Source: Clostridia bacterium
Lineage (GTDB): Bacteria; Bacillota; Clostridia; Oscillospirales; CAG-272
NCBI GenBank assembly: GCA_017452335.1
Contig: JAFTMP010000026.1
Coordinates: forward strand, 1 to 34,765
Direction of reading: 5' to 3'
Length of the DNA stretch: 34,765 nt
Part shown: piece after piece, positions 1 through 30,571 of the stretch
Numbering within the stretch: the stretch's first letter is position 1
Layout of the letters: every line of letters begins with the position of its first letter
Notes under the pieces: model-generated
What the model was told of the DNA's origin: nothing
Database searches by the model: none
The model's input: the letters and a program-made list of their open reading frames with translations, nothing else
Position numbers and translations under genes: made by a program

Positions 1-2
1 CC

Positions 3-479
3 CGTCTCGGTATCGGTGAGATATTCATTCCCGAGAACGAGCCCGGCTCTTCCATCATGCCCGGTAAGGTAAACCCCACACAGTGTGAGGCTGTGACCAA
101 GGTAGCCGTTCAGGTTATGGGTAACGACACCACCATCAGCATTGCCGCTTCTCAGGGTAACTTTGAGCTCAACGTCTTCATGCCCGTGGCAATGTACAAC
201 TTCCTGCAGTCCGGCAGACTCCTTGCTGAAGCGATCCTTTCCTTCAATAAGAACTGCGCTGTAGGTATCAAGGCAAACAGAGAAAAGATGCATGACAACC
301 TGCATAATTCTCTCATGCTGGTTACCGCGCTCAATCCCTACATCGGATATGAAAACGCGGCAAAGACTGCAAAGAAGGCATTTAAGGACAACATTTCCTT
401 GAAGGAAGCTTGCGTGGAACTGGGCTTCTTGACCGCTGAAAAGTTTGACGAAGTGTTCCATCCCGAAGAAATGGTTTAA
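3..479 (+). CDS. fumC: Class II fumarate hydratase, C-terminal fragment (5' end is outside the window)
   Basis: Frame 3 is open from the window edge. The translation [34 protein letters not shown]... carries the fumarase/aspartase superfamily signature in its fumarase form ([16 protein letters not shown]). Stop TAA at 477-479. Confidence 0.9.
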
Positions 480-508
480 AAACCCTTTAAAACTGATCTT
501 TCAAATGA

Positions 509-542
509 TCCATCACTTCCGCTTTGATGCGGAAGTGATGGA
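509..542 (+). terminator. Stem-loop downstream of fumC (possible weak terminator or attenuator)
   Basis: 14-bp perfect inverted repeat, tccatcacttccgc (509-522) / gcggaagtgatgga (529-542), with a 6-nt loop. No clear T-tract follows, so termination efficiency is uncertain. Confidence 0.35.
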
Positions 543-619
543 AAATGAAATTCTATGCGGCGAAAAACGCCGCGGCAGCCGTTTGAAGATGCTTTGGCGG
601 TTGCAAGAAAGGAACGAAA

Positions 620-1420
620 ATGAAGGTAAGTTATTTCCCCGGGTGTACCCTCAAGACCAAGGCAGTAAAGCTGGACGAATATGCCCGCCGCTGTGCCGAG
701 GTGTTGGGTGTGACCCTTGAAGAAATAGAAAACTGGCAGTGCTGCGGCGGTGTGTTTACCACCTCAAAAGACGAGGTTGCTACCAAGCTTTCTTCCGTAC
801 GTGTGCTCAAGGCGGCACAGGATAAGGAACAGGTGCTGGTGACTGTGTGCTCCGCCTGCCACAATGTGGTCAAGCAGACCAACCACCAGGTGCAGACCGA
901 TAAGGAATTTGCCGATAAGGTAAACCGTTACATGGCTGCAGAGGGCGGATATGACGGAACCACCAAGGTGTACCACTACTTAGAGCTGCTTCGCGATGTA
1001 GTGGGCTTTGACAAGATCAAGGAAAAGGTGGTTAAGCCTCTGAACGGCGAAAAGATCGCGGTGTATTACGGATGTCTGCTTCTTCGTCCCGGCACGGTGA
1101 TGAAGATGGACGATCCCGAAAACCCCAAGATCATTGAGGACTTGATCAGAGCCCTTGGCGGTGAGCCCGTGATCTATAACAAGCGCAACGAATGCTGCGG
1201 CGGTTATGTGACCATGGAGAATCCCGCATTTGCCGAGAAGAAGAGCCAGTCTATTACAGAAAACGCCAAGTCCTTTGGTGCAAGCCGTATGATCACCGCT
1301 TGTCCGCTTTGCAAGTACAATCTTGAAAAGCACGAAGAAGAGCTTCCCGTAGTATACTTTACCGAGCTGCTTGCAGAAGCGCTCGGCGTTAAGGAGGATG
1401 CCGATGAGTCAGCAGAATAA
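620..1420 (+). CDS. hdrB: Heterodisulfide reductase subunit B-like protein (two CCG cysteine-rich domains)
   Basis: 266 aa. Two copies of the CCG pattern C...CCGG...CxxC: FPGCTLK...WQCCGG...VCSACH and YYGCLLL...NECCGGY...ACPLCKY. ATG at 620 is preceded by aaaggaa. Confidence 0.85.
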   Translation: MKVSYFPGCTLKTKAVKLDEYARRCAEVLGVTLEEIENWQCCGGVFTTSKDEVATKLSSVRVLKAAQDKEQVLVTVCSACHNVVKQTNHQVQTDKEFADKVNRYMAAEGGYDGTTKVYHYLELLRDVVGFDKIKEKVVKPLNGEKIAVYYGCLLLRPGTVMKMDDPENPKIIEDLIRALGGEPVIYNKRNECCGGYVTMENPAFAEKKSQSITENAKSFGASRMITACPLCKYNLEKHEEELPVVYFTELLAEALGVKEDADESAE

Positions 1421-1796
1421 TAATTTAAAGGAAGAGTTGATCCGCATCAGCGGTGTCAACCCCAAGAAATGTATGCGTTGCGGAAAATGCTCCGCTACCT
1501 GTCCCGCTTATGAGGAGATGGAATACCATCCTCATGAATTTGTGGTCATGGTGGAAAACGGAAACATTGAACCGCTGTTAAACACCGAATCGCTGTACAG
1601 ATGTCTGACCTGCTTTGCATGCGTGGAAAGGTGCCCCAGAGGGGTAGAGCCCGCAAAGCTGGTGGAGGCAGTACGCCTGGTGGCAACCAGACGCCAGGGC
1701 GCCAACCACATGAAGGCAGACGATGTACCCGCGAAGCTGGACGAGGATCTGCCTCAGCAGGCGATCGTCAGCGCATTTAGAAAGTACACAAAGTAA
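1404..1796 (+). CDS. hdrC: Heterodisulfide reductase subunit C-like 2x[4Fe-4S] protein
   Basis: 130 aa from ATG 1404, with SD AAGGAGG at 1391-1397. Two CxxCxxCxxxCP motifs (CMRCGKCSATCP, CLTCFACVERCP). Overlaps the hdrB stop by 17 nt. The upstream start at 1371 in the ORF track lacks an SD. Confidence 0.8.
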   Translation: MSQQNNNLKEELIRISGVNPKKCMRCGKCSATCPAYEEMEYHPHEFVVMVENGNIEPLLNTESLYRCLTCFACVERCPRGVEPAKLVEAVRLVATRRQGANHMKADDVPAKLDEDLPQQAIVSAFRKYTK

Positions 1797-1814
1797 TAAG
1801 GAGGAAAACGCAAA

Positions 1815-3809
1815 ATGCAAAGAATTGGTGTATTCGTATGTTGGTGCGGAAGCAATATTGCAGGTACGGTAGACGTGCAGGCAGTATCCGATGCCCTGAA
1901 GAATGAACCCGGCGTTGTATTCTCCACCAACTATCAGTATATGTGCTCCCAGGCAGGTCAGAACATGATCAAGGATGCCATTAAGGAATATCGCCTGACC
2001 GGTATCGTTGTCTGCTCCTGCTCGCCCCGTATGCACGAGGCAACCTTCCGCAAGACGGCACAGGCTGCAGGCCTCAACCCCTACATGGTTGAAATTGCAA
2101 ACATCCGTGAGCAGTGCTCTTGGGTACATAAGGACATCCCCACCGGTACCGAAAAGGCAATCATTCTGGGTAAGGCGGCAGTTGCAAAGGTAAACCTCAA
2201 CGCGCCCTTAACGCCCGGTGAATCGCCCGTGACCAAGCGTGCGCTGGTGATCGGCGGCGGTATCGCAGGTATTCAGACCGCTCTTGATATCGCAGATGCA
2301 GGCTTCCCTGTAGATATCGTAGAGACCAAGCCCACCATCGGCGGTAAGATGGCACAGCTTGACAAAACCTTCCCCACCCTTGACTGTGCGGCTTGTATCC
2401 TCACTCCTAAGATGGTGGATGTGGCACAGAATGACAAGATCCGCATCTTCTCTTACAGTGAAGTGCAGGAGGTAAAGGGCTTTGTCGGCAACTTTGATGT
2501 AAAGATCAAGAAGAAGGCACGTTATGTAAATGAAGACATTTGTACCGGTTGCGGTGCATGTACCGAAAAATGTCCTCAGAAGAACGTTCCCAACGAATTC
2601 AACCTGGGCATGGATAACCGCCGTGCCATCTACATTCCTTTTGCACAGGCAGTGCCGAAGGTTGCAACCATTGACCCCAATGCCTGCAACATGCTGAAGA
2701 ACGGCAAGTGCGGCGTGTGCGCAAAGGTTTGTGCCGCAGGTGCCATCGACTATAAACAGCAGGATCAGATCATCGAAGAGAAGTACGGTGCGATCGTAGT
2801 TGCTACCGGCTTTAACCCCATCAGCATGGAGAAGTTCGATGAATTTGCATACAGCCAGTCTAAGGACGTCATCACCTCTTTAGAATTTGAGAGACTGACC
2901 AACGCCGCAGGTCCTACTGCAGGAAAGCTCCTTCGTCCCTCTGACCTTGAGCATCCTCACACCATCGTATTCGTACAGTGCGTGGGCTCCCGTTGCGCGG
3001 CATGCGCAGAAAAGGGCAAGGAATACTGCTCCAAGATCTGCTGTATGTATACTGCAAAGCATGCAATGCTGGTGCGTGACAAATATCCCGATACCGAGGT
3101 TTACGTGTTCTACATTGACGTCAGAACTCCCGGTAAGAACTTTGATGAATTCTATCGCCGTGCCGTAGAAGAGTACGGTGTACACTACATCAAGGGTATG
3201 GTCGGCAAGGTTACCCCCGAGGGCAAGAAGCTGAAGGTCCAGGGCTCCGATCTGATCATGGACGAGCAGGTGCACATTGACGCAGACCTGGTGGTTCTGG
3301 CAGCGGCAATTGAGCCCGATAAGTCTGCACGTCCTCTTGCAACCATGCTGACTGCAAGTATGGATACCAACGACTTCTTCACTGAAGCACATCCCAAGCT
3401 TCGTCCCGTAGAAAGCCCCACCGCGGGTGTGTTCCTGTCCGGTGCGTGCCAGGGTCCCAAGGATATTCCCGAGACCGTTTCTCAGGCAGGCGCGGCAGCA
3501 TCCAAGGTTATTGGACTGCTGGCAAAGGATAAGCTCACCGGTAACCCCTGCATTGCAAGCCCCAACGAGCTGATGTGTAACGGTTGCTCCTCTTGTGAGC
3601 GTGTATGCCCCTACGGTGCTATTACCTATGTTGATAAAGAATTCCGTATGCCCGACAGAACCACTGCGATCCGTCGCGTGGCACAGGTCAACCCTGCGGT
3701 TTGCCAGGGATGCGGAGCTTGTACAGTTGCTTGTCCTTCCGGTGCGATGGATCTTCGCGGCTTTGCAAGCGCGCAAATCATTGCGGAGGTGGATGCAATA
3801 TGCAAGTAA
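1815..3809 (+). CDS. hdrA: Heterodisulfide reductase subunit A (FAD plus multiple Fe-S; the electron-bifurcating-type flavoprotein)
   Basis: 664 aa. N-terminal IGVFVCWCGSNIAG Cys motif, dinucleotide fold VIGGGIAGIQTALD, the HdrA-typical CVGSR...CSKICCMY motif, and ferredoxin motifs CTGCGACTEKCP, CNGCSSCERVCP and CQGCGACTVACP. SD aaggagg upstream. Confidence 0.9.
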   Translation: MQRIGVFVCWCGSNIAGTVDVQAVSDALKNEPGVVFSTNYQYMCSQAGQNMIKDAIKEYRLTGIVVCSCSPRMHEATFRKTAQAAGLNPYMVEIANIREQCSWVHKDIPTGTEKAIILGKAAVAKVNLNAPLTPGESPVTKRALVIGGGIAGIQTALDIADAGFPVDIVETKPTIGGKMAQLDKTFPTLDCAACILTPKMVDVAQNDKIRIFSYSEVQEVKGFVGNFDVKIKKKARYVNEDICTGCGACTEKCPQKNVPNEFNLGMDNRRAIYIPFAQAVPKVATIDPNACNMLKNGKCGVCAKVCAAGAIDYKQQDQIIEEKYGAIVVATGFNPISMEKFDEFAYSQSKDVITSLEFERLTNAAGPTAGKLLRPSDLEHPHTIVFVQCVGSRCAACAEKGKEYCSKICCMYTAKHAMLVRDKYPDTEVYVFYIDVRTPGKNFDEFYRRAVEEYGVHYIKGMVGKVTPEGKKLKVQGSDLIMDEQVHIDADLVVLAAAIEPDKSARPLATMLTASMDTNDFFTEAHPKLRPVESPTAGVFLSGACQGPKDIPETVSQAGAAASKVIGLLAKDKLTGNPCIASPNELMCNGCSSCERVCPYGAITYVDKEFRMPDRTTAIRRVAQVNPAVCQGCGACTVACPSGAMDLRGFASAQIIAEVDAICK

Positions 3810-4234
3810 ATGAAAAAAAGCCTTTGATCGTGGCATTTTGCTGCAACTGGTGCTCTTACGCCGGTGCAGACCTTGCCGGTAACAACCGTTTGGCATATCC
3901 TGCGGATGTCAAGATCATCCGCGTACCCTGCTCTTGCAGAGTAAACCCCATGTTCATTCTGCGCGCCTTCCAGAGAGGTGCAGACGGTGTCATCATCTGC
4001 GGATGCCATCCCGGTGACTGCCACTACACCTCCGGTAACTACTTCACCCGCCGCCGTATGGCAATGCTCTTCTCAATGCTGGACTATCTGGGCATCGAGA
4101 AGGAAAGAACCCGCGTAGAGTGGGTGTCTGCGGCTGAAGGTGCAAAGTTTGCCGCAACCATGAATGATTTTGCCGAAAAGGTCGCCGCTCTTGGCGAGAA
4201 TAAGAGATTGGAGGATCTGCGATGCAAAAAATAA
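3800..4234 (+). CDS. mvhD: MvhD/FlpD (FlxD-like) 2Fe-2S electron-transfer subunit
   Basis: 144 aa from ATG 3800 (GGAGG about 10 nt upstream), overlapping the hdrA stop by 10 nt. Motifs FCCNWCSYAGADLAG, VPCSCRV and CGCHPGDCHY are typical of methyl-viologen-reducing hydrogenase delta subunit family proteins. Confidence 0.85.
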   Translation: MQVNEKKPLIVAFCCNWCSYAGADLAGNNRLAYPADVKIIRVPCSCRVNPMFILRAFQRGADGVIICGCHPGDCHYTSGNYFTRRRMAMLFSMLDYLGIEKERTRVEWVSAAEGAKFAATMNDFAEKVAALGENKRLEDLRCKK

Positions 4235-5220
4235 CTCGTGAAGTGCTGATCGAAAAAGCAGCCTCTTTATTAAATGAAGGCGTTGTTTCCGGTGTTCTTG
4301 GCTGGAAGCAGGGCGAATTTGCCTATGACGTAACGCCCGCGCTGTTCACCACCGTGGACGAGCTGAATGAACAGTTCGTTTGGGGCGATTTCTGCGGCGC
4401 AAACTTTTCCAAATATTTGGTAGCCCATACCCGCAAGACCCAGAGCAAGGTACTGGTGTTCTTGAAGCCCTGTGATACATACAGCTTCAACCAGCTGCTC
4501 ACCGAGCACCGCTTCGACAGAGAAAAGGTGTACGCAGTGGGTATCCCCTGCGAGGGCATGGCTGATGTTTCCAAGGTGAAGGCAATTGCAGGCGAGGGTA
4601 TCACCGCAATTGAAAGCACCGAAGAGGGTCTTGCTGTGACCACTCTTTATAACGACGCGCCCGTGGTGATCGCTTATGAAGACGCTCTTGCCGAAAGATG
4701 CATCAACTGCAAGAGTAAGAAGCATGTGGCGTATGATGAGCTGATCGGCGAAGAGGGCGATGTGCTGGAAAGCGGACGCTTTGACCAGGTTGCCGCACTG
4801 GAGGCAATGACTCCCGACGAGCGCTTTGCGTTCTGGCAGAAGGAGCTGTCTAAGTGCATCCGTTGCAACGCCTGCAGAGACGTTTGCCCTGCATGCACCT
4901 GCGAAAAGTGCGTGTTTAACAACCCCGTTTCGGGTGCTGAGACCAAGGCGCCCATGGGCACCTTTGAAGAGAAGATGTTCCATATCATCCGTGCCTTCCA
5001 CGTGGCAGGCAGATGTACCGACTGCGGCGAGTGCTCCAGAGTATGTCCTCAGGATATCCCTCTGCACCTGCTGAACAGAAAGTTCATCAAGGATATCAAC
5101 ACCCACTACGGCGAATACCAGGCAGGTGCCGAGGTTGGTTCCAGAGCTCCTCTTGTGAACTACACCACAAACGACGTTGAGCCCGGTGATGTGTTTGAAA
5201 GGGGTGAAGAGAATGCGTAA
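4222..5220 (+). CDS. Fe-S subunit, AsrA/HydB(sulfhydrogenase beta)/FlxC-like
   Basis: 332 aa. C-terminal CIRCNACRDVCPACTCEKC plus CTDCGECSRVCP, the CxxCxxCxxxCPxCxC pattern shared with the next gene. Overlaps the mvhD stop by 13 nt. SD GGAGG lies 7 nt upstream. Confidence 0.65.
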   Translation: MQKITREVLIEKAASLLNEGVVSGVLGWKQGEFAYDVTPALFTTVDELNEQFVWGDFCGANFSKYLVAHTRKTQSKVLVFLKPCDTYSFNQLLTEHRFDREKVYAVGIPCEGMADVSKVKAIAGEGITAIESTEEGLAVTTLYNDAPVVIAYEDALAERCINCKSKKHVAYDELIGEEGDVLESGRFDQVAALEAMTPDERFAFWQKELSKCIRCNACRDVCPACTCEKCVFNNPVSGAETKAPMGTFEEKMFHIIRAFHVAGRCTDCGECSRVCPQDIPLHLLNRKFIKDINTHYGEYQAGAEVGSRAPLVNYTTNDVEPGDVFERGEENA

Positions 5221-6241
5221 GTGTGCACTTGCAAATCTTGACAAGCTGTTTGCCGCTATTGCTGAAAATGCAGACCTGTATCTGCCTGTAAATGACGAGA
5301 ACGGTGCGGCATCCTATAAGAAATGGGAAGAGGGCACAGAAATGAGCGATGCGCTCAACACTGTAAAGAGCCCCAAGGATTTCTTCTTCCCTCAGAGTGA
5401 AGATCTGATGACCTTCAAGACCGAGGGCAAGAACATTGAGATCACCGATATCAGAGAAGAAAGCAAGGATTTCGTGGTATTCGGTGTGAGAGCCTGCGAT
5501 GTAAGAAGCTTTGACATTCTGGACCGTGTGTTCATCACCGATCCCCAGGATAGCTACTATGCTTCCAAGAGAGAAAAAGGCGTGATCGTTTCCATGGCTT
5601 GTACCAGACCCACCGAGACCTGCTTCTGCGCGGCATTTGGTATTGACGCGGCAGCACCCAAGGGCGACGTGACCACCTGGAAGACCGAGGCGGATCTGTA
5701 CCTGCAGGCAAATACCGAAAAGGGTGAAAAGCTGCTGGCAGCGCTGGAAGCACTGACCGAGGAAGCAGACTGTGCCGCTGTGGAAGCACAGCAGGCAAAG
5801 ACCCGTGCAATTATGGAAAAGCTTCCTCTTGCTGGGCTGGATACCGAACAGTTTGGTGGCGGCAAGACCAAGGAATACTTTGATGCACCCGAATGGAAGG
5901 AACTGTCTCAGTCCTGCCTTGGATGCGGTACTTGTACCTTCGTTTGCCCCACCTGCCAGTGCTATGATATCAAGGACTTCAACACCGGCAGAGGTGTGAT
6001 CCGTTACCGTTGCTGGGACTCCTGCATGTATTCGGAATTCACCAGAATGGCACACGGCAACAACAGAAACTCTCAGCTTGAGAGATTCCGTCAGCGCTTT
6101 ATGCACAAGCTGGTATACTATCCCGAAAACAACGACGGTATTTTTGGATGCGTGGGATGCGGCAGATGCCTTGCAAAATGCCCCATTTCCATGAATATTG
6201 TAAAGGTTATGAAGACTCTGGGAGGTAAGAAAGATGAGTGA
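5213..6241 (+). CDS. Fe-S subunit, anaerobic sulfite reductase subunit A-like / sulfhydrogenase beta-like (FlxB-like)
   Basis: 342 aa from ATG 5213; its first 8 nt overlap the 3' end, including the stop, of the previous gene. Motifs SPKDFFFPQSE, CLGCGTCTFVCPTCQCYD and CVGCGRCLAKCP. Paralogous to the preceding gene. Confidence 0.75.
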   Translation: MRKCALANLDKLFAAIAENADLYLPVNDENGAASYKKWEEGTEMSDALNTVKSPKDFFFPQSEDLMTFKTEGKNIEITDIREESKDFVVFGVRACDVRSFDILDRVFITDPQDSYYASKREKGVIVSMACTRPTETCFCAAFGIDAAAPKGDVTTWKTEADLYLQANTEKGEKLLAALEALTEEADCAAVEAQQAKTRAIMEKLPLAGLDTEQFGGGKTKEYFDAPEWKELSQSCLGCGTCTFVCPTCQCYDIKDFNTGRGVIRYRCWDSCMYSEFTRMAHGNNRNSQLERFRQRFMHKLVYYPENNDGIFGCVGCGRCLAKCPISMNIVKVMKTLGGKKDE

Positions 6242-7067
6242 GATGAGAGAACCCTTGATTCCCTACGTTGGGGTCATTACCGATGTGCGCATCGATACCC
6301 CCGACATCAAGACCTTCAGAGTGGTCACCCCCGATGGCAAGAAGGCATTTGACCATAGACCCGGTCAGTGCGCAATGCTGTCTATCCCCGGTGTGGGCGA
6401 GGCGATGTTCTCCATCACCTCCGCCCCCACAAACACCGAGTTTATGGAATTCTCCATTAAAAAGTGCGGATGCGTTACCGAGTGGCTGCACCAGGCTGAG
6501 GTTGGTCAGCAGGTAACCATCAGAGGACCTTACGGCAATCCTTTCCCTGTGGACGATGCCTTTGCAGGAAAGAACCTGCTGTTCGTAGCAGGCGGTGTAG
6601 GTCTGGCACCTCTTCGTTCTGTAATCAACTACTGCCGTCACTACCGTGACCGTTACGGCAAGATCGACATCGTTTACGGCTCCAGAAGCAAGGATGATCT
6701 GCTGGACTACAAGGAGATCATCGAGGAATGGGCTACCGACGAGGGTGTGAATGTACACCTGACCATCGACCGCGAGCAGGAAGGCTGGGACGGACATGTA
6801 GGCTTTGTGCCCAACTACGTGAAGGAACTGAACTTTGATACGGATAAGATCGCCGTACTGTGCGGTCCTCCCATCATGATCAAGTTTACTCTGGAGGGTC
6901 TGCAGGCGCTGGGCTTTGAAAAAACACAGGTATATACCACGCTGGAGCTGCGCATGAAGTGCGGTATCGGTAAGTGCGGTAGATGCAATGTAGGCTCCAA
7001 GTATGTTTGCAAGGACGGACCTGTATTCCGTTTTGACGAACTGGACGAGCTGCCCGGCGAATATTGA
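6234..7067 (+). CDS. FAD/NAD(P)H-binding oxidoreductase with C-terminal 2Fe-2S (AsrB / sulfhydrogenase gamma / PyrK / FlxA-like)
   Basis: 277 aa. Ferredoxin-reductase-type barrel (RPGQCAML...FSITS), NAD(P) fold LLFVAGGVGLAPL, and C-terminal CGIGKCGRCNVGSKYVCKDGPVF. Overlaps the previous gene by 8 nt. SD GGGAGG. Confidence 0.8.
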   Translation: MSEMREPLIPYVGVITDVRIDTPDIKTFRVVTPDGKKAFDHRPGQCAMLSIPGVGEAMFSITSAPTNTEFMEFSIKKCGCVTEWLHQAEVGQQVTIRGPYGNPFPVDDAFAGKNLLFVAGGVGLAPLRSVINYCRHYRDRYGKIDIVYGSRSKDDLLDYKEIIEEWATDEGVNVHLTIDREQEGWDGHVGFVPNYVKELNFDTDKIAVLCGPPIMIKFTLEGLQALGFEKTQVYTTLELRMKCGIGKCGRCNVGSKYVCKDGPVFRFDELDELPGEY

Positions 7068-7085
7068 TGAGAAGGAGAAATGAGA

Positions 7086-7760
7086 ATGGAAAACATGGTA
7101 AATATTTTTCTCTTCGGTAAGAAGTATCAGGTTCCCGGAAATCTGACCATCATGAGCGCAATGGAATATGCAGGCTACCAGCTGGTACGCGGCTGCGGAT
7201 GCCGTAACGGCTTTTGCGGTGCTTGCGCAACCATTTACCGTATCAAGGGTCAGCAGGAATTAAAGGCTTGCCTTGCTTGCCAGACCAAGGTTGAAGAAGG
7301 TATGTACATTGCAACTCTGCCTTTCTTCCCCCTGGTAAAGCAGGTATACGATATTGAAACTGTGAAGACCAACGAACAGGTGATGATGCAGCTCTATCCC
7401 GAGATCTATGCTTGTATCGGATGCAATGCCTGCACCAAGGCTTGTACCCAGGGTCTGAACGTTATGCAGTATATCGCGTATGCTCAGAGAGGCGACTTTG
7501 AAAAGTGCGCTGAGGAGTCCTTCGACTGCGTAATGTGCGGCGTATGCTCCTCTCGTTGCCCCGCAGGCATTTCCCATCCCCAGGTGGCAATGCTGGCGCG
7601 CAGAATCAACGGTAAGTACCTGGCTCCCGATTGCGGACATCTGGAGGACCGCGTAAAGGAGATCAAGGACGGCACCTTCAAGGAACTCATCGAAGCGCTG
7701 ATGCAGAAACCCGTTGAAGAAATGAAAGAACTCTATAACAATAGAGAGATCGAGAAATAA
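7086..7760 (+). CDS. Succinate dehydrogenase/fumarate reductase iron-sulfur subunit-like protein (2Fe-2S N-domain plus 2x Cys-cluster C-domain)
   Basis: N-terminal plant-ferredoxin-like CGCRNGFCGAC...CLAC. C-terminal CIGCNACTKAC and CVMCGVCSSRCP. SD GAAGGAG at 7071-7077 favours ATG 7086 over the track start at 7080, which is only 2 nt from the SD. Confidence 0.7.
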   Translation: MENMVNIFLFGKKYQVPGNLTIMSAMEYAGYQLVRGCGCRNGFCGACATIYRIKGQQELKACLACQTKVEEGMYIATLPFFPLVKQVYDIETVKTNEQVMMQLYPEIYACIGCNACTKACTQGLNVMQYIAYAQRGDFEKCAEESFDCVMCGVCSSRCPAGISHPQVAMLARRINGKYLAPDCGHLEDRVKEIKDGTFKELIEALMQKPVEEMKELYNNREIEK

Positions 7761-7772
7761 GGAGGGCGGACA

Positions 7773-9377
7773 ATGTATTCGGAGAATTTTCAGAAGTCTC
7801 TTAAGGCTGTAGAAGCGGCAAGAGAACAGAACGTTGCAATGGAACCTGCCCGTATGACTGCAAAGCAGAAGGAAGATCTGCTGGCAGAATTCCATCCTGA
7901 CTATAGACAGGATCAGTTTGAGATCCTGCAGATCGGTCCCAACAAGGGCGGTAAGGTGCCCAAGGAATTGGCGGCAACTCTGCAGGCTCACAGCCGTATC
8001 ACCGCTGACTCGGTGGATCTGTCCGCACCCGACTATGATGTGGACGTTCTGGTAATCGGCGGCGGCGGTGCCGGTGCTTCTGCGGCTATTGAAGCCCATG
8101 AAGCGGGTGCTGATGTCATGATCGTGACCAAGCTTCGTATCGGTGATGCCAACACCATGATGGCAGAGGGCGGTATTCAGGCGGCTGACAAGCCCAACGA
8201 CTCTCCTGCGATCCACTTTGTAGACGCTTTCGGCGGCGGTCACTATGCCGCAAAGAGAGAGCTGCTTGCAAAGCTGGTGTGCGATGCACCCGAGGCAATT
8301 CAGTGGCTCAGTGAACTGGGTGTTGAATTCGATAAGTACGAGGACGGCACCATGGTAACCACCCACGGCGGCGGTACCTCCAGAAAGCGTATGCATGCGG
8401 CGAAGGACTATTCCGGTGCCGAGATTATGAGAACCCTTCGTGATGAAGTATACAATCGTCAGATCCCCGTTGTGGACTTTACCTCCGCAATCGAGCTGAT
8501 CCTTGACGAAGAGGGCAAGGCGGCAGGTGCGGTGCTTCTGAACATGGAGACCGAGGAACTGCTGGTTGCCAAGGCAAAGACCGTGATCATCGCTACCGGC
8601 GGTGCAGGTCGTATGCACTATCAGGGCTTCCCCACCTCCAACCACTACGGCGCAACCGCAGACGGTCTGGTGCTGGGCTACAGAGTGGGCGCAAAGCTGC
8701 TCTATGCTGAAACCCTGCAGTATCACCCCACCGGCGCGGCTTACCCCGAGCAGATCTTCGGTGCACTGGTAACCGAGAAGGTTCGTTCTCTGGGCGCAAA
8801 GCTGGTCAACGCCAACGGCGAAGTGTTCATGCACCCGCTGGAGACCCGTGACGTTTCTGCTGCTTCCATTATCCGTGAATGCACCGCAAGAGACAACGGC
8901 GTTGACACCGGCAACGGCAAGGGTGTATGGCTGGACACTCCCATGATCGAGATCCTCGGTGGTGAGGGAACCATCATGAAGAGAATCCCCGCAATGTGGA
9001 GAATGTTTGATAAGTACGGCATCGACATCCGTAAGGAGCCCATCCTTGTATTCCCCACACTGCACTATCAGAACGGCGGTCTTGACATTACCGAGGACTG
9101 CATGACCACCAATGTGGAAAACCTGTTTGTTGCAGGTGAGGCAGTTGGCGGTATCCACGGCAGAAACCGTCTGATGGGTAACTCTCTGCTTGATATCATC
9201 GTATTCGGACGCAGTGCAGGTAAGAATGCGGCGGCAAAGGCAAAGAATACCACTGTTGGCACACTGACTCTTGATCATATTGCAAAGTTTGAACAAGAGA
9301 TCACCGATGCGGGTATCGAGACCGAGACCGTTTCGCCCAAGCTCCTTCCCAACTACACTAAGAGAGCAGACTTTTAA
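7773..9377 (+). CDS. FrdA/SdhA/NadB-superfamily FAD flavoprotein (soluble fumarate-reductase-like catalytic subunit)
   Basis: 534 aa. Dinucleotide fold DVLVIGGGGAGASAAIEA. Substrate and catalysis motifs of the fumarate reductase family: YHPTG, TEKVRSLG, LHYQNGG and GRNRLMGNSLLD. SD aaggaggg. Confidence 0.75.
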   Translation: MYSENFQKSLKAVEAAREQNVAMEPARMTAKQKEDLLAEFHPDYRQDQFEILQIGPNKGGKVPKELAATLQAHSRITADSVDLSAPDYDVDVLVIGGGGAGASAAIEAHEAGADVMIVTKLRIGDANTMMAEGGIQAADKPNDSPAIHFVDAFGGGHYAAKRELLAKLVCDAPEAIQWLSELGVEFDKYEDGTMVTTHGGGTSRKRMHAAKDYSGAEIMRTLRDEVYNRQIPVVDFTSAIELILDEEGKAAGAVLLNMETEELLVAKAKTVIIATGGAGRMHYQGFPTSNHYGATADGLVLGYRVGAKLLYAETLQYHPTGAAYPEQIFGALVTEKVRSLGAKLVNANGEVFMHPLETRDVSAASIIRECTARDNGVDTGNGKGVWLDTPMIEILGGEGTIMKRIPAMWRMFDKYGIDIRKEPILVFPTLHYQNGGLDITEDCMTTNVENLFVAGEAVGGIHGRNRLMGNSLLDIIVFGRSAGKNAAAKAKNTTVGTLTLDHIAKFEQEITDAGIETETVSPKLLPNYTKRADF

Positions 9378-9398
9378 GAGATTGGGAGGACGTTTGAG

Positions 9399-10654
9399 AT
9401 GACTTTATTTGGCGGTGTTATCCCGATTACCGGCGTAACATTTTTGATGTTTTCGATCTTCGCGATCATTGTAGTGGGATTTGCTCTGGGTAGAATTACC
9501 ATTAAGGGCGTTTCCCTTGGCGATGCCGGCGTGTTTATTATGGCGCTGGTGTTTGGTTGCTTCTTCTACAAGGTGCTGGACGCACAGTTGACTGTCAAGT
9601 TGGCTGAGGAAACTGTTAGCTACACCTCCAGTGCATTGAAGATTGTTGAAAGCCTGGGTTTGATCCTCTTTGTAACCTCTGTTGGTTTCATTGCAGGCCC
9701 CAAGTTCTTTGGCAACATGAAGAAGAACTTTAAGTCTTACGTGCTGCTTGGTCTGGTGTTATTTTGGCAGGCGGACTTTCGGCAGTGGCATGCATTATGC
9801 TGGGCAGAGTGACCGGCGTTGCACAGAACAACGACGAGCTGACTGCTATGGTTGTTGGTCTGCTTTCTGGTTCTCTTACCTCCACCCCTGCATTCTCTGC
9901 GGCAAAGGCAACTGTTGATGCCGTTTATGAGAGTGCTGTATCGGTAGGTCACGGTATTGCTTACATCTTCGGCGTGATCGGTGTGGTACTGTTCGTACAG
10001 ATCGTGCCCAAGCTTTCCAAGGCGAATATGGCTGAGGAAAGAGCGAAGCTCACCGTTGTTGAAGACGGTAAGGAAAAGAAAAAGTACACCGGCAAGCTTT
10101 TTGAGCTGGACGGACACGGCTTTGCAGTGTTTGCGCTGGCGGCAATCGTGGGTATTTTCATCGGTATGATCAAAATTCCCCTGTCCGCAAAGGGTCTTTC
10201 GGGAACCTGCTTCTCGCTGACCACCACCGGCGGATGCTTGATGACCGCGCTTGTCTTTGGTCACTTCGGCAGAATCGGAAAGTTTGCTCTGATGCCCAAG
10301 GAATCCACCTTGAAGATCTTCAAGGAACTGGGTCTGCTCCTCTTCCTTGTTGGTGCAGGTATTTCCGGCGGCGACGGCTTCTTTGAGATGTTTGACGTGC
10401 AGTACTTCTTCTACGGCGTGTTCATGACCATCGTTCCCATGATCGCAGGCTTCTTCTTTGCAAAGTACGTGCTGAAGCTGAACTTGCTCAACAACCTGGG
10501 ATCTCTTACCGGTGGTATGACCTCCACTCCTGCACTTGGAACACTGATCAACACGGCAGGTACCGACGACGTTGCTTCTGCTTATGCGGCAACTTATCCC
10601 GTAGCACTGATCGCAGTGGTTCTGGTTTCTCAGTTCCTGATCATTCTGTTCTAA
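9399..10654 (+). pseudogene. AAE-family (aspartate:alanine exchanger / YidE-YbjL / SucE-like) transporter, split by a frameshift near 9755-9765
   Basis: Two abutting ORFs (9399-9812 and 9764-10654) are each multi-TM halves of one duplicated-domain permease. The first half ends KSYVLLGLV, then turns to out-of-frame text. The second frame is open from 9734 and continues ILAGGLSAVACIMLG. The junction lies in gttatttt. SD gggagga precedes ATG 9399. Confidence 0.6.
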
Positions 10655-10680
10655 GAACAAAGCAACTACATTAACAAACA

Positions 10681-10708
10681 CCGCCCCGTTTCAATCGAAA
10701 CGGGGCGG
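10681..10708 (+). terminator. Rho-independent terminator closing the hdr-flx-frd-transporter operon
   Basis: GC-rich 11-bp stem, ccgccccgttt (10681-10691) / aaacggggcgg (10698-10708), with a 6-nt loop, followed by ctttcat. It starts 27 nt after the stop at 10654. Confidence 0.7.
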
Positions 10709-10753
10709 CTTTCATCCTAAAATAAAACGTATTTTACGAAAAAGGAGAATTCC

Positions 10754-11314
10754 ATGAGAAAAAATTTTGGCGCAAAACCTATTTTATATCCCCAGCCTGT
10801 CTTTATCATTGCCACTTACGGCGCTGATGGCACGCCCAATGCCATGAATGCGGCGTGGGGCGGGTTGAGCGAGGAAAATGAGATCACCATTTGCATCAGT
10901 GCCGATCACAAGACCACCGAAAATATCAAAAAGAGAAAAGCCTTCACCGTGAGTATGGCAACGGCTGAGTACGTTGCCGCCTGTGACTATGTGGGTATCG
11001 TTTCGGGCAATGATTGCGCGGATAAGTTTGCAAAAGCGGGGTTTCATGTTGAAAAAAGCAGTTTTGTGGACGCGCCGCTGATTAGTGAACTGCCCGTTGC
11101 GGTGGAGTGCACGCTGATCTCTTATGATGATGAAAGTTGTCGCTTGGTGGGACGGATCGAGAATGTGTGCGCTGACGAGCGAGTGTTAAACAAAAAGGGA
11201 AAGATCGACCCGCAAAAGCTGCGCCCCATTACCTATGATCCCATGAATCATGACTATTTGGTGTTGGGAGAGCCTGTAGGCAAGGCGTTCGGTGAGGGCT
11301 TGAAGTTAAAATAA
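10754..11314 (+). CDS. Flavin reductase-like (FMN-binding split-barrel) domain protein
   Basis: 186 aa. PQPVFIIATYGADGTPNAMNAAWGG is typical of Flavin_Reduct-domain proteins. SD aaaggag lies 6 nt upstream of the ATG. Confidence 0.7.
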   Translation: MRKNFGAKPILYPQPVFIIATYGADGTPNAMNAAWGGLSEENEITICISADHKTTENIKKRKAFTVSMATAEYVAACDYVGIVSGNDCADKFAKAGFHVEKSSFVDAPLISELPVAVECTLISYDDESCRLVGRIENVCADERVLNKKGKIDPQKLRPITYDPMNHDYLVLGEPVGKAFGEGLKLK

Positions 11315-11324
11315 AAGATCACTC

Positions 11325-11353
11325 TTGACGGCGACTGCGAAATATGCTATAAT
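11325..11353 (+). promoter_or_regulatory. Near-consensus sigma-70/SigA promoter for the NifX-like gene
   Basis: TTGACG (11325-11330), a 17-nt spacer, then TATAAT (11348-11353). About 35 nt upstream of the SD and ATG at 11388. Confidence 0.6.
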
Positions 11354-11387
11354 CGCTGTTGCGAATAACAAAGAGGAGATTGTCAAT

Positions 11388-11822
11388 ATGATTATTGCTG
11401 TAACGTATGAAAATGAACAAGTGTTCGGTCATTTCGGCCGCACCAAGCAGTTTAAGCTGTATACGGTGTTGAAGGGGGAGGTTGTTTCTTCCGAAGTTGT
11501 GGATACCAACGGAAGCGGGCACGGTGCACTTGCCGAATTTTTGTCAAATTTAGAGGTAGGTCTGCTGATTTGCGGCGGCATTGGCGGTGGTGCGCAAATG
11601 GCACTGGCGCAGGTAGGTATTTCGATTATTGGCGGTGTAACCGGGGAGGCTGATGAGGCTGTGGAGGCGTTTCTTAACGGAACGCTGGAGGATGATCCCG
11701 AGAATGCTGTTGCAGCCACCATGACGGTGAAGAACACCACTGCGGTGAGAATCACTGCGGCGAGCATGGCTGTGGCGGCGGATGCGGCGGACATTGCCAT
11801 GAATAAGAATAAAAAGCTTTGA
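11388..11822 (+). CDS. NifB/NifX/dinitrogenase FeMo-cofactor-binding family protein (C-terminal tail probably mis-framed)
   Basis: MIIAVTYENEQVFGHFGRTKQFKLY...VVDTNGSGHGALAEFL...LICGGIGGGAQMAL is the standard fold of this family. SD agaggag lies upstream of ATG 11388. The track start at 11325 lies inside the promoter. See the finding on the alternative-frame Cys/His tail that ends at 11806. Confidence 0.75.
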   Translation: MIIAVTYENEQVFGHFGRTKQFKLYTVLKGEVVSSEVVDTNGSGHGALAEFLSNLEVGLLICGGIGGGAQMALAQVGISIIGGVTGEADEAVEAFLNGTLEDDPENAVAATMTVKNTTAVRITAASMAVAADAADIAMNKNKKL

Positions 11823-11957: not shown

Positions 11958-13961
11958 TTACTCCAAATTGGTTGACAGCTCGCCAAGGGTAGTTTCGCCC
12001 CAGCTATAGTTTGTAAGATAACTTCCCTTGAAAAGCTGTGAATACTCCTCCTTGCCTGAAAGGTATTGATAAAGGTCGCACTGTACTCTTTCCATTACGA
12101 TCCGCCGTTTACCGTCTACGGATTCGATAACATCCGAAATGCCGTATTCTTCTAATGTATTTTTCAAGCGAAGTGCCACCTTGCGGTATCTGGATAGTGT
12201 TACGGTATTGGCAGGCTCATCTTCCCAAAGAAAACTGATTGCTTCTTCCGATGTGACATAGCCGCCCTTTCGGTCAACAAGAAGTGCAAACAATTCCTTT
12301 GATTTCTTGTTTCTGAAAGCGATTGGTCTATCTCCGACAAATACATCAAAATACCCAAATGTACGAATTGAAACGGTACGATTCTCAAGGAGTTTTTTAT
12401 TTTCATCCTCCTCGGTATCTTCAACCAAGTATAGCATAACGTATCTTGGAGAATGACTATTAGGTTCTTTTTGAGAACAGATTGCCTTTATTTTCCGTTC
12501 CGTTTCAGTGCTGTAGTCAAAATAGGTAAACTCTGCCTCGCCGGTTCTGAGCAGTTTTGCAAAATCCTCGTATGCCGCTTCGCTGTACGCAACAAAGTTT
12601 TCAATAGGTGTGTACTTTTCTGTCAGAGGAATCCATTCTTTTTTTGTGTATCCAAAGAATTCACACACATTTTCACTGGCGTAAAGAGGTTTCACCAAGC
12701 CTTCTGCTGAAATTTCAAATGCGGCGATTCCGTCAGAAAACTGCTTGACAAGGTCTTGCATTTTCTGCTTCAACTCATCATTTTCAGTTCGTAAAATGCT
12801 CTCTTTTCCTGTTTCTTGAATGTGACGGCAGCAATAATAGCTGATCGACTCATCGACCTTGATAAATATTCCGCTATACTGTTTAAGCGCTCCGTCAGAA
12901 GAACGGGCAGTATATGTGATTTGAGGAGGCTTTGCATCCGGCTCATACAGTTTTTTCTGACAAAAATCTCTAAAGAAGCCACGGATATTCTCACGGTCAT
13001 CAGGCTCCACAGCGCTCAGTATCCACTTGTCTAGTGCTTCGTCAATCTGCATGGGGATATCTTCAAATAATTTAAAGGATGACCCATCATTGCAGTGCAG
13101 GCATTTTACGGTGTTGGCATCAAGATTGAATTCAAATATTTTATCATACACATCGGTCAACGCCTTCATATAGCGTTTTGTTTCAGCGGCTTTTCGTACC
13201 TGATGCTGTGCGGTAACATCCATGCAGACACTCTGAAACTCTTCTATGCCTTCTTTATTGACAGTCTTGGTTACCCAGCCAAACACATAGGCGCGCGTCC
13301 CATCACAACGAAGCAAGGTCATCTCGCCGGCAATGGGCGCATCTGCAGAATAAACACGGTTCAGATACTTAGAGAATCTGCGCCGCTCTTCCATTGGGAT
13401 CATCAGGAATATATTGCGTTTATACAGTTCAAGGTAATCCAGCTCGCCTTCTCTAACGGTGGGGAAACGAAGTAAATCAATCATCGTCTGATTGATATAT
13501 GTAATTTTGGGTTGCTTTTCGCAGGTATATTTCAAAAAACCGCAGGGAATGGTTTCATTCAAGAACTGCAGATTATTGTTTTCATTCTTAATATCGGTTA
13601 TATCAGCAAGAACAGAATAGCATACAAGCGTGCCATCCTCCAGTTTCTTGGACGTGGCAGTATCTCTTACACAGATTACCGTGCCATTCTTTTTTATTAA
13701 ACGGTACTCTGCCTTAAGGGTCTGTTCTTGTTTAGATAAGTTGCAGATAAATTGGGCATACTTTTCGCGGTCAGCATGGTGAACTAATAGCATATAAAGA
13801 TCTTTGCTATCGTGAAGCAATTCCTGTTCTTCATATTCAACCATATCACATAGATTTTGGCTTACATATTCCAAGTGAATCGGATCATTCAATATATATT
13901 GATGAAAGCCGCTGATTTGCCGACTAAGTATATCCTCCATGTTTTTTGGTGTGTTGCTCAT
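11958..13961 (-). CDS. Multi-PAS sensor fused to a SARP/OmpR-type winged-helix DNA-binding domain (one-component transcriptional regulator)
   Basis: 667 aa from ATG 13961 (SD aaggag 6 nt upstream). It contains several PAS-like repeats, for example EYRLIKKNGTVICVRDTA and MTLLRCDGTRAYVFGWV. The C-terminus IRTFGYFDVFVGDRPIAFRNKKSKELFALLVDRKGGYVTSEEAISFLWEDE...RYRKVALRLKNTL matches the SARP wHTH pattern. Confidence 0.7.
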   Translation of the reverse strand: MSNTPKNMEDILSRQISGFHQYILNDPIHLEYVSQNLCDMVEYEEQELLHDSKDLYMLLVHHADREKYAQFICNLSKQEQTLKAEYRLIKKNGTVICVRDTATSKKLEDGTLVCYSVLADITDIKNENNNLQFLNETIPCGFLKYTCEKQPKITYINQTMIDLLRFPTVREGELDYLELYKRNIFLMIPMEERRRFSKYLNRVYSADAPIAGEMTLLRCDGTRAYVFGWVTKTVNKEGIEEFQSVCMDVTAQHQVRKAAETKRYMKALTDVYDKIFEFNLDANTVKCLHCNDGSSFKLFEDIPMQIDEALDKWILSAVEPDDRENIRGFFRDFCQKKLYEPDAKPPQITYTARSSDGALKQYSGIFIKVDESISYYCCRHIQETGKESILRTENDELKQKMQDLVKQFSDGIAAFEISAEGLVKPLYASENVCEFFGYTKKEWIPLTEKYTPIENFVAYSEAAYEDFAKLLRTGEAEFTYFDYSTETERKIKAICSQKEPNSHSPRYVMLYLVEDTEEDENKKLLENRTVSIRTFGYFDVFVGDRPIAFRNKKSKELFALLVDRKGGYVTSEEAISFLWEDEPANTVTLSRYRKVALRLKNTLEEYGISDVIESVDGKRRIVMERVQCDLYQYLSGKEEYSQLFKGSYLTNYSWGETTLGELSTNLE

Positions 13962-14069
13962 AACGACTCCTTTTTGCAAACGAAGCATTGCTTTGAAAAT
14001 AAGGACAAAATAAGTATAACATATAATTGTAAAAAAATCTTGTATGTTTTGTATTTTTCAAATAGGTCG

Positions 14070-26635: not shown

Positions 26636-26651
26636 GATCTATCTTCTCCTT

Positions 26652-28448: not shown

Positions 28449-28512
28449 GTTTTAAGTCCTTGCCTTTCCTGTTTACGGAAAAACTTCCTTTCTTTATTTA
28501 TAAATAGTTGTA

Positions 28513-28875
28513 TTACAGTTCTCCGATGGTGTAGTCGGTCAGCACTTTGCCGTTGAGGATATGCGCTTCAATAACTTCTTTTGCCTTTTCGGGCGTCATC
28601 TTCACGTAAGTGGTCTTTTCGTCGCCGTGGAAGACCTCGAAAATGGGCTCATACTGGCAGAGTCCGATGCAACCTGTCTGGGAAACGTGAACCTGTCCTT
28701 CCAAACCCTTTGCGGTGATCTCCTCAAGCAGTGCGTTCATAACGGGTCTTGCGCCTGCCGCGATGCCGCAGGTTGCCATACCCACAACGATACGGTAATT
28801 GCTCTCGCCCTCACGAAGAGCAACCTTGTTTTTCATGCGCTCGCGAATTGCGCTGAGTTCTGCTAATGTTTTCAT
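28513..28875 (-). CDS. HndB-like thioredoxin-fold 2Fe-2S ferredoxin subunit
   Basis: 120 aa. VGMATCGIAAGA...SQTGCIGLCQYEP. Confidence 0.75.
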   Translation of the reverse strand: MKTLAELSAIRERMKNKVALREGESNYRIVVGMATCGIAAGARPVMNALLEEITAKGLEGQVHVSQTGCIGLCQYEPIFEVFHGDEKTTYVKMTPEKAKEVIEAHILNGKVLTDYTIGEL

Positions 28876-28938
28876 GACGGTGTGATCCTTTCATTATTGG
28901 TGTTATATGTGAATTTTCATAAATTAAGACTTAATTGC

Positions 28939-30233: not shown

Positions 30234-30559
30234 GACAATTGTCCCGCGATCATGGCGCACAGCTCGTAAGCCGAAAGGGGAGAAGAAAGAATGTTTACTT
30301 CCTTTTCTAACGCCTTTTCGATCACCCCGGCATCGGGAGTTACGCCCGCGGCAAGGATCACGCAGGCAACATCGGTCAGCGTTGCCACTGCCACGATGTT
30401 TAAATTGGACATGATCGTTACCCAAGCATCCCCTTCTTGTGCTGTACCCATGACAAAGCTGAGCAGGTCACCGGTATATCCCGAGGACACTTCCTTTTCG
30501 GGCAGGGGCATAGAAAGAATTTTAAGATCCAGTTCCTTTTGCAGTTGTGCAACTGTCAT
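30230..30559 (-). CDS. DRTGG-domain protein (second copy)
   Basis: 109 aa. Paralogous to 32344-32694 (GDLLSFVMG..., VTIMSNLNIVAVATL...). Strong SD aggagggg. Confidence 0.65.
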   Translation of the reverse strand: MTVAQLQKELDLKILSMPLPEKEVSSGYTGDLLSFVMGTAQEGDAWVTIMSNLNIVAVATLTDVACVILAAGVTPDAGVIEKALEKEVNILSSPLSAYELCAMIAGQLS

Positions 30560-30571
30560 AACCCCTCCTGA

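Follow-up and report, generated by a model that had tools for sequence, protein, structure and literature searches.

An hdr-flx operon with a soluble fumarate reductase-like pair in gut and rumen Clostridia: a candidate for electron-bifurcating fumarate reduction

The "succinate operon" of Pseudoclostridium thermosuccinogenes, reported by Koendjbiharie and colleagues, contains genes for a fumarate hydratase, seven Flx-Hdr proteins, two fumarate reductase subunits and a putative succinate transporter, and is upregulated approximately 4-fold as a unit under CO2 limitation (PMC7282089). Citing a 2019 preprint, the same report proposed that fumarate reduction in this organism is coupled to the reduction of ferredoxin (PMC7282089). 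Note that high H2 abolishes succinate formation in P. thermosuccinogenes (PMC7282089), as would be expected if the pathway contains a ferredoxin-reducing step. A related arrangement was found by Rubin-Blum et al. in tubeworm symbionts and in Thioflavicoccus mobilis, where korABCD and tfrAB are interspersed with flxABCD-hdrABC in reductive tricarboxylic acid (rTCA) cycle clusters (PMC6315080). A 2024 study of the Riftia symbiont (Ca. Endoriftia) reported the same interspersed layout and, as in the earlier work (PMC6315080), proposed direct electron shuttling by bifurcation (PMC11636981). In addition, one passage of a 2024 preprint surveying HdrA proteins links the HdrA of Ruminococcus champanellensis to a succinate dehydrogenase/fumarate reductase. 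Here we describe a locus of this kind in a 34,765-nt stretch of DNA from a Clostridia bacterium of the Oscillospirales lineage CAG-272 (contig JAFTMP010000026.1, positions 1 to 34,765 of the forward strand; the whole stretch is referred to as the window). The window carries a hdrBCA-flxDCBA gene set that runs into genes for an FrdB-like Fe-S protein and an FrdA-like flavoprotein.

With a fumarate hydratase, seven Flx-Hdr proteins, a two-gene soluble reductase and a transporter, the window has the layout of the succinate operon (CDQ83_RS03315-03365, by its description). The original prediction, made from the window's sequence, had implied that a bifurcating fumarate reductase would be a new idea; the operon and the hypothesis were in print for P. 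thermosuccinogenes (PMC7282089), as was the association of Hdr-Flx with tfrAB for the tubeworm symbionts (PMC6315080, PMC11636981). The accompanying remark that a characterized enzyme with these subunits is not known still seems to be true, as full-text literature searches found no purification or assay. The window is thus a further example of a system hypothesized in print since 2019, set here in a broad comparative picture. What we add is the breadth of conservation of the operon in gut and rumen Oscillospirales, the modular pairing of FrdAB with other electron donors, the identification of cultured carriers, and a set of hallmarks of the FrdAB-like family (a flavinylation site occupied by Asn, an extended N-terminus and a missing C-terminal domain in FrdA, and an FrdB that is all-[4Fe-4S] and has no CCG domain).

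The hdr-flx-frd operon and its products

The genes of the operon all lie on the + strand of the window, and were assigned from open reading frame (ORF) calls together with domain profile searches (Pfam and NCBIfam), which agree with each of the assignments made in the original prediction. The first gene, hdrB (620-1420), encodes a protein with two CCG domains, which in HdrB hold the two non-cubane [4Fe-4S] clusters. The Pfam CCG profile matches it in two stretches (1.1e-22), a solved HdrB structure (PDB 8rvv_B) matches it at 2.4e-36, and both copies of the CX31-39CCX35-36CXXC motif are present (C9, C41, C42, C77 and C80; C152, C192, C193, C228 and C231), all ten of these Cys residues being kept in 56 of 56 sequences. 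Note that the NCBIfam models for SdhE and HdrB score equally on this protein, at approximately 151-152 bits, the cut-off for SdhE being 500. The product of hdrC (1404-1796) carries a Fer4 dicluster domain for two [4Fe-4S] clusters (Fer4_8/Fer4_17 by Pfam; NCBIfam CoB_CoM_SS_C, 9.6e-18), whose eight cluster Cys residues are likewise kept in 56 of 56 sequences. HdrA, encoded at 1815-3809, is full-length, with the FAD domain and the N-terminal, inserted and C-terminal Fe-S domains. Over its whole length it can be aligned with the bifurcating HdrA of known structure from Methanothermococcus thermolithotrophicus (5odc_A; residues 3-661 against 5-648, E 7e-203), and it scores 779 bits with the NCBIfam HdrA2 model; that this is under the equivalog cut-off of 1100 is explained by MvhD being encoded by a separate gene in the window. 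HdrA is the FAD flavoprotein that bifurcates electrons in the Mvh-Hdr complex.

That separate gene, flxD/mvhD (3800-4234), encodes a protein of the FlpD family (2.6e-55), a [2Fe-2S] adaptor for electron entry to HdrA in which all nine Cys residues are kept in 61 of 61 sequences. It is followed by genes for two Fe-S proteins, namely flxC (4222-5220), whose product has a Fer4 dicluster at residues 208-279 and which is colinear in relatives, and flxB (5213-6241), whose product is of the AsrA/sulfhydrogenase beta type (Fer4_22, 6.3e-30; NCBIfam ShyB/HydB/AsrA) and matches the beta subunit of Pyrococcus sulfhydrogenase I (PDB 9nez_B) at 3.7e-44. The last gene of the set, flxA (6234-7067), specifies a flavoprotein of the AsrB/sulfhydrogenase gamma type with FAD_binding_6, NAD_binding_1 and DHODB_Fe-S_bind domains (NCBIfam PRK08345, 1.6e-69), which is presumed to be the point of electron entry. 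By domain content, then, the FlxABCD part of the set is made up of a FlxA with FAD, NAD(P)H and [2Fe-2S] sites, the Fe-S proteins FlxB and FlxC, and an MvhD-like FlxD. The claim that the window encodes the full FlxABCD-HdrABC set in the order hdrBCA-flxDCBA is confirmed by these profiles, which account for all seven protein types.

The flavoprotein encoded by frdA (7773-9377) contains a FAD_binding_2 domain (1.1e-68) that is confined to residues 91-472. Among the NCBIfam models TfrA scores highest, with 347 bits over model positions 6-426 of 546, where the cut-off is 718; the NCBIfam models match up to approximately position 426, and Succ_DH_flav_C is not found in the protein. An AlphaFold2 model (pLDDT 87) gives high confidence to an N-terminal extension of approximately 90 aa, and a Foldseek search with this model returned E. 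coli FrdA (5vpn and 1kf6) as the top matches, with TM scores of 0.70-0.71 (0.71 for 1kf6_A). (There is also a weak match to structure 8a8o, which we take to reflect kinship to AprA, a flavoprotein of the fumarate reductase family that has a small Fe-S partner.) The prediction that this protein retains the residues for fumarate binding and catalysis holds for all seven positions compared: H318, T334, E335, R338, R359, H431 and R466 correspond to H232, T244, E245, R248, R287, H355 and R390 of E. coli FrdA, and none of these residues for fumarate binding and proton relay varies in the family alignment, which extends down to 39% identity. An assignment as a fumarate/succinate-type flavoprotein is supported by these comparisons. 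At the position of His44, through which E. coli FrdA binds FAD covalently (8-alpha-N3-histidyl), the window's protein has Asn127, which is invariant in the family. An Asn replacing this His is typical of soluble low-potential fumarate-reducing enzymes. Asn127, and with it a non-covalently bound FAD, would thus fit catalysis in the fumarate-reducing direction.

The partner subunit, encoded by frdB (7080-7760), is a soluble Fe-S protein with Fer2_4, Fer2_3 and Fer4 domains (Pfam). It contains an SdhB-type [2Fe-2S] motif (C41-x4-C46-x2-C49-x14-C64) and two CxxCxxCxxxC motifs (C112/115/118/122 and C150/153/156/160), the Cys residues of these motifs being kept in 73-76 of 76 sequences. The three-Cys [3Fe-4S] motif of a quinone-linked complex II subunit is replaced here by a four-Cys motif, no anchor accompanies the protein, and neither a CCG domain (by Pfam and NCBIfam) nor a quinone signature was found in it. 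NCBIfam matches are weak (dhsB, 29 bits, N-terminal; TfrB, 37 bits against a cut-off of 385). With no 3Fe-4S cluster, no CCG domain and no encoded anchor, FrdB has no known route to quinones or thiols. Moreover, the statement that the operon encodes no membrane anchor stands, since all nine redox proteins are without a transmembrane-like segment (top 19-residue Kyte-Doolittle score at most 1.36; the permease reaches 2.5).

Two assignments of the pair were considered and rejected. A membrane- or quinone-linked complex II is ruled out by the absence of an anchor gene, of a transmembrane segment and of the 3Fe-4S motif, and membership of TfrAB is ruled out by the TfrA and TfrB scores given above and by the lack of a CCG fusion.

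From the fumC-hdrB junction to the permease gene, successive genes are separated by 140, -17, 18, -10, -13, -8, -8, 12, 12 and 21 nt. The ORF coordinates bear out the overlaps of 17, 10, 13, 8 and 8 nt that had been noted at the outset; the short gaps had been given as 18, 18, 12 and 21 nt and measure 18, 12, 12 and 21 nt. A site of the GGAG/AGGAGG type precedes every start codon, in agreement with the Shine-Dalgarno sequences reported at the junctions. With regard to the description of ten co-directional genes, order and strand are as described and the tenth gene is not a single ORF, as a 1-nt deletion splits the permease gene (see below). The observation of the operon is essentially right, save for this frameshifted permease and the small errors in spacing.

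Conservation of the operon

To place the operon in a wider context we drew on a genome scan with one genome per species, and assessed synteny by mapping the window's proteins onto the best 80 of at least 594 loci. A relative of the FrdA-like protein is encoded in at least 594 species-level genomes, and close homologues in metagenomes number in the thousands. The best 80 of these loci, at 74-88% identity, all come from gut or rumen Clostridia; carriers among them include the cultured Yeguia hominis NSJ-40 and metagenome-assembled genomes (MAGs) labelled Ruminococcus, Acutalibacteraceae and Oscillospiraceae. Where at least 7.3 kb of sequence was available upstream of frdA, hdrBCA-flxDCBA-frdBA was colinear in 55 of 56 species-level loci. 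The frdAB-like pair is therefore repeatedly syntenic with hdr-flx, at least in the gut and rumen Clostridia that make up the best 80 loci, and the concern that the adjacency might be unique to this genome is removed. Chance juxtaposition of hdr-flx and frd, which we had considered as an explanation, is ruled out by the same count.

The gap between flxA and frdB is 12 nt in the window and has a median of 10 nt in relatives (range 4-112, n = 74); as far as can be judged from the sequence, a transcript break at this junction would be argued against. Upstream, fumC directly precedes hdrB in 52 loci, and mdh precedes fumC in 45. A second lineage with an Hdr link is seen in a locus whose FrdA (P0121) is 55% identical to that of the window (L003, 811-9771). 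Here, genes for a four-subunit 2-oxoacid:ferredoxin oxidoreductase are followed by hdrA-mvhD-hdrC-hdrB-frdB-frdA, without flxABC. In addition, a natural FrdB-FrdA fusion of 727 aa (L087, 5250-7433; 58% identity), encoded in an unrelated gene context, supports the idea that FrdB and FrdA form a unit.

A proposed bifurcating reaction and competing explanations

We put at about even the chance that the operon specifies an NAD(P)H-driven, ferredoxin-reducing, bifurcating fumarate reductase in which HdrB is wired directly to FrdB. According to this proposal NAD(P)H would be oxidized at FlxA (FAD and [2Fe-2S]), and the electrons would travel via the Fe-S clusters of FlxB, FlxC and FlxD to the FAD of HdrA, where the pair would be split. 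One electron would go uphill, via the ferredoxin domains of HdrA, to ferredoxin. The other would take the downhill branch via HdrC and HdrB, whose two non-cubane clusters would hand it directly to FrdB, with its [2Fe-2S] and two [4Fe-4S] clusters, and from there to the non-covalent FAD of FrdA, where fumarate would be reduced; fumarate would in this way take the place of the heterodisulfide as acceptor. The net reaction would be 2 NADH + Fd(ox) + fumarate -> 2 NAD+ + Fd(red, 2 e-) + succinate (Fd, ferredoxin), at about -49 kJ/mol. (The standard potentials used are -320 mV for NADH, -420 mV for ferredoxin and +33 mV for fumarate.) No thiol carrier would be needed, because the sole CCG module is HdrB itself. 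Moreover, the lack of a CCG domain in FrdB, together with the lack of a thiol-carrier gene in the operon, makes direct wiring of HdrB likelier than a shuttle in the manner of TfrAB. There is also a precedent for docking of HdrB on FrdB, in that a CCG protein is found on SdhAB-type enzymes both in fused form (TfrB) and as SdhE in enzymes of type E.

The genes for mdh and fumC upstream and for a dicarboxylate-type permease downstream fit a route from oxaloacetate to succinate. It is plausible that the operon, with fumC (and mdh in relatives), would constitute a cytoplasmic oxaloacetate-to-succinate branch of a quinone-independent bacterium. In its broadest form, to which we give slightly less than an even chance, the proposal would have all nine soluble proteins assemble into a single complex, which would be the first flavin-based bifurcating enzyme with fumarate as its high-potential acceptor. 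The HdrB clusters would then serve as a pure relay to FrdB instead of as a site of disulfide reduction, hundreds of Oscillospirales species of the gut and rumen would make succinate mainly by this enzyme and independently of quinones, and some of the energy of fumarate reduction would be recovered as reduced ferredoxin, for H2 production or for Rnf.

If bifurcation is true, fumarate would join crotonyl-CoA, caffeyl-CoA, the heterodisulfide, pyruvate and methylene-tetrahydrofolate (methylene-THF) as drivers of ferredoxin reduction, a role of HdrB-type clusters as electron relays would be established, and the production of succinate with energy conservation in quinone-free Clostridia would be explained. 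Such an enzyme would matter for how succinate and hydrogen flow in the rumen and in the human gut, as well as for the production of bio-succinate. With respect to the bifurcation that had been suggested originally, gene content, the type of FrdA, the soluble partner and an adjacency that is not due to chance all stand; a physical complex, direct wiring of HdrB to FrdB, reduction of ferredoxin and a preference for NADH over NADPH as donor are what we infer from the gene set.

Several points weigh against the proposal of a bifurcating reductase. The literature searched contained no biochemical or structural evidence for the complex or for ferredoxin reduction by it, and orthology of the window's genes to those of P. 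thermosuccinogenes is something that we infer from the published description. The best 80 loci belong to one clade, and their synteny could in part reflect common descent. The sole exception among the 56 loci (L040, 8079-11605), from a Congzhengia MAG, has a gene for a CitMHS transporter ahead of frdB-frdA, with no hdr or flx gene within 9 kb; its FrdAB is 81-85% identical to that of the window, and either has another donor or is served by an hdr-flx set at another place in the genome. In a more distant locus (L084, 9366-12891; P0128, 47% identity), frdB-frdA is followed, with overlapping stop and start codons, by a gene for a NuoF-like subunit with Complex1_51K, SLBB and NADH_4Fe-4S domains, an arrangement that might encode a possible three-subunit NADH:fumarate reductase. 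(The setting of this locus is proteobacteria-like, with cytochromes c, DsrE, rhodanese and UbiA.) In six further loci (L085-L087 and L090-L092; 40-58% identity) frdA stands by itself or together with a small Fe-S partner. The occurrence of FrdAB with different input modules thus portrays it as a portable soluble reductase, for which Hdr is one recurrent choice. Finally, in Endoriftia tfrAB is the one part of the cluster that departs from the shared expression pattern (PMC11636981).

Among the alternatives, the one that survives best, itself unlikely, is that of a non-bifurcating NAD(P)H:fumarate oxidoreductase, in which Hdr-Flx would be a mere wire to FrdAB, no ferredoxin would be reduced and the energy would be lost as heat. 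The sequence by itself is no proof of bifurcation, and the FrdAB homologue that is paired with just a NuoF-like subunit suggests that a simple NADH-dependent soluble fumarate reductase could exist in this family. That very pairing makes a seven-subunit module look costly where a single NuoF-like subunit does elsewhere, and the module, with its bifurcating-type HdrA and ferredoxin domains, is strongly constrained in 55 species. The physiology of P. thermosuccinogenes under H2, moreover, agrees with coupling to ferredoxin.

Somewhat less likely again is that the operon encodes co-regulated but separate enzymes, with FrdAB fed by reduced ferredoxin, flavodoxin or some other donor, and Flx-Hdr serving a different acceptor and just sharing a transcript with the reductive TCA branch. 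The divergent expression of tfrAB in Endoriftia and the occurrence of FrdAB without nearby Hdr-Flx, in the Congzhengia MAG and in several distant clusters, can be read in this way; however, the operon encodes no alternative acceptor for Hdr, gene order and the 4-112-nt spacing are kept in 74 relatives, and the link to Hdr recurs independently in the lineage of the 2-oxoacid oxidoreductase locus (L003) and in the Gammaproteobacteria.

We consider improbable a thiol/disulfide shuttle, in which Flx-Hdr would reduce some disulfide, either of a small molecule or of a protein like DsrC, together with ferredoxin, and FrdAB would reoxidize the thiol, like TfrAB. Both CCG motifs of HdrB are intact, TfrA is the top NCBIfam model for FrdA, and published rTCA models admit a DsrC-like intermediate. 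FrdB, however, has neither a CCG domain, which in TfrB is fused, nor another known thiol-oxidizing site, and there is no gene for a DsrC-, TusE- or thioredoxin-like protein among the ten genes of the operon and the next two downstream. In addition, such bacteria are not known to contain CoM or CoB, and neither would be expected there.

That the FrdA-like protein acts on L-aspartate or another enoate instead of fumarate is very improbable, for although NadB models and structures score nearly as high as those of Frd and Sdh, and the protein lacks the C-terminal domain and has an unusual extension at its N-terminus, L-aspartate oxidase or another such specificity is disfavoured by the full set of dicarboxylate-binding and proton-relay residues, by His198 at the position of the NadB-specific Glu121, by an Fe-S partner that NadB does not have, and by the mdh-fumC context of relatives.

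Operon borders, neighbouring genes and comparison with known systems

The last gene of the operon (9399-10654, + strand; Asp-Al_Ex) had been predicted to encode a permease of the AAE family (AspT/YidE/YbjL/SucE). The family assignment holds, both Asp-Al_Ex repeats being recognizable (Asp-Al_Ex, YidE_YbjL_dupl), and an intact ORF is lacking in the window. The region is 1256 nt long, which is no multiple of 3, and comprises ORFs at 9399-9812 and 9764-10654 (137 and 296 aa); in a tblastn comparison with an intact 420-aa orthologue, the frame changes at residues 119-120. Among the loci compared, the closest relative of the window is L088 (96% FrdA identity), which has an intact 487-aa permease. 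A blastn alignment to this locus indicates that one base is missing near position 9758, where the window reads GGTCTGGT^GTTATT and L088 reads GGTCTGGTCGTTATT. The missing base does not fall within a long homopolymer, and the permease is whole in relatives, at 420-487 aa (420 aa in L001, 487 aa in L088). The broken gene is either a pseudogene or the product of a sequence or assembly error.

A permease gene of the AAE family lies downstream of frdA in 49 of 70 loci. The suggestion that succinate is exported by the product of the last gene does not hold here, as this gene is frameshifted in the window, and 21 of 70 relatives have no such permease gene. The operon ends at frdA in the permease-less loci, and the pathway may therefore serve reductive-TCA biosynthesis besides succinate fermentation. 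In one locus (L041, 12475-15114) the permease is missing and argG-argH follows frdA. The product of argH, argininosuccinate lyase, releases fumarate; this proximity may be a coincidence or a metabolic link.

At the other end of the operon, the left edge of the window clips fumC, of which the 3' part is present (1..479, + strand; class II fumarate hydratase). Its frame is open from base 3, the GSSxMPxKxNP signature is present, and the FumaraseC_C profile matches the fragment at 4.7e-25. The placement of fumC upstream of hdrB was correct; it is not immediately adjacent, a strongly structured spacer of 140 nt (480..619) lying between the two genes. This spacer, which in relatives has a median length of 26 nt, folds as three hairpins (minimum free energy -57.7 kcal/mol, z = -7.0 versus shuffled controls), of which the one at 510-541 is a perfect stem of 13-14 bp. 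A known RNA or riboswitch at 480-619 is ruled out, as Rfam gave no match in the spacer nor anywhere else in the window. A repeat element is likewise ruled out, the hairpin at 510-541 having no second copy in the window and not being found in 92 related loci. The spacer could be a lineage-specific attenuator, a processing site or a partial terminator.

Past the permease gene, a convincing terminator had been noted. The hairpin is there, G+C-rich and with 13 pairs, 9 of them G-C (10680-10709); its tail on the + strand is just TTT, and a consensus scan does not include it among the + strand sites. This hairpin is likely the end of the operon. Downstream lie a flavin-reductase-like gene (10754-11314) and a small gene with a Nitro_FeMo-Co (NifX/NifB-type) domain (11325-11822); a near-consensus sigma-70-like site, with 11 of 12 matches and a TG, is found at 11325-11353. 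These are followed on the - strand by a gene (11958-13988) for a 676-aa protein whose sole recognized domain is an N-terminal PAS domain; the gene lies in a stretch poor in G+C (0.41 compared with approximately 0.50 for the window).

The window also encodes, on the - strand, a HydABC-type [FeFe] hydrogenase (HydA 24893-26635, HydB 26652-28448, HydC 28513-28875). Genes of the HATPase, PHP-domain and HydS-like sensory hydrogenase types precede those for the hydrogenase, within 24893-31897. Between HydABC and the frd operon lies a complete cluster for fatty-acid synthesis (fab/acc, 14-23.5 kb). The idea that this hydrogenase consumes the ferredoxin reduced by the operon's enzyme was overstated: it is a matter of co-occurrence alone, with HydABC 14 kb away and on the opposite strand.

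Of the systems described to date, the succinate operon of P. thermosuccinogenes is like that of the window in gene inventory, block order and attached hypothesis, the match being one to its published description. It differs in belonging to a thermophile and in its transporter, which is annotated as hypothetical there and is of the AAE family and frameshifted here. The rTCA clusters of tubeworm symbionts and Thioflavicoccus share with the window a soluble TfrAB/FrdAB-like reductase that is genomically linked to Hdr-Flx, and the L003 layout is similar to theirs. In contrast to the window, they belong to autotrophic Gammaproteobacteria and include 2-oxoglutarate:ferredoxin oxidoreductase (OGOR), ATP-citrate lyase and PntAB in the cluster, none of which is found in the window; the setting of the window's operon looks fermentative or anaplerotic.

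For FlxABCD-HdrABC of Desulfovibrio vulgaris, Ramos et al. in 2015 reportedly proposed that NADH oxidation is accompanied by reduction of ferredoxin and of a DsrC disulfide acceptor. Compared by protein type, all seven proteins are common to both systems, and for both the oxidation of NADH with reduction of ferredoxin and a high-potential acceptor has been proposed. The gene order there is flxABCD-hdrABC, whereas here it is the mirrored hdrBCA-flxDCBA, and the place of the DsrC disulfide would be taken here by a cis-encoded fumarate reductase. Methanothermobacter TfrAB resembles the window's reductase in that TfrA is the top model for FrdA, in being soluble and without a quinone site, in having [2Fe-2S] and [4Fe-4S] clusters, and in combining CCG chemistry with fumarate reduction. 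It is unlike it in that the two CCG domains are fused in TfrB, whereas in the window they reside on a separate HdrB within an HdrABC set, and in that the window's FrdA-like protein has no C-terminal domain.

The methanogen complex MvhAGD-HdrABC (5ODC) has clear homologues of the window's HdrA, HdrB, HdrC and MvhD, and the same bifurcating core would be expected; there the donor is H2, via MvhAG, and the acceptor CoM-S-S-CoB, whereas NAD(P)H via FlxABC and fumarate via FrdAB are proposed here. In the type E enzymes SdhABE and MfrABE (succinate:quinone and methylmenaquinol:fumarate reductases), a two-CCG, HdrB-like protein is the partner of an SdhAB-type enzyme, and in SdhB of this type the 3Fe-4S cluster is replaced by a second cluster of the [4Fe-4S] kind. 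These enzymes are membrane- or quinone-linked, however, and have no HdrA, HdrC or Flx, and the window's HdrB falls well below the SdhE cut-off (152 bits versus 500). Finally, QmoABC-AprAB and MetFV-HdrABC-MvhD are similar to the proposed enzyme in having HdrA-type modules wired to a terminal reductase that does not act on a disulfide; they differ from it in their substrates, adenosine 5'-phosphosulfate (APS) or methylene-THF, and, in the case of Qmo, in being membrane-linked.

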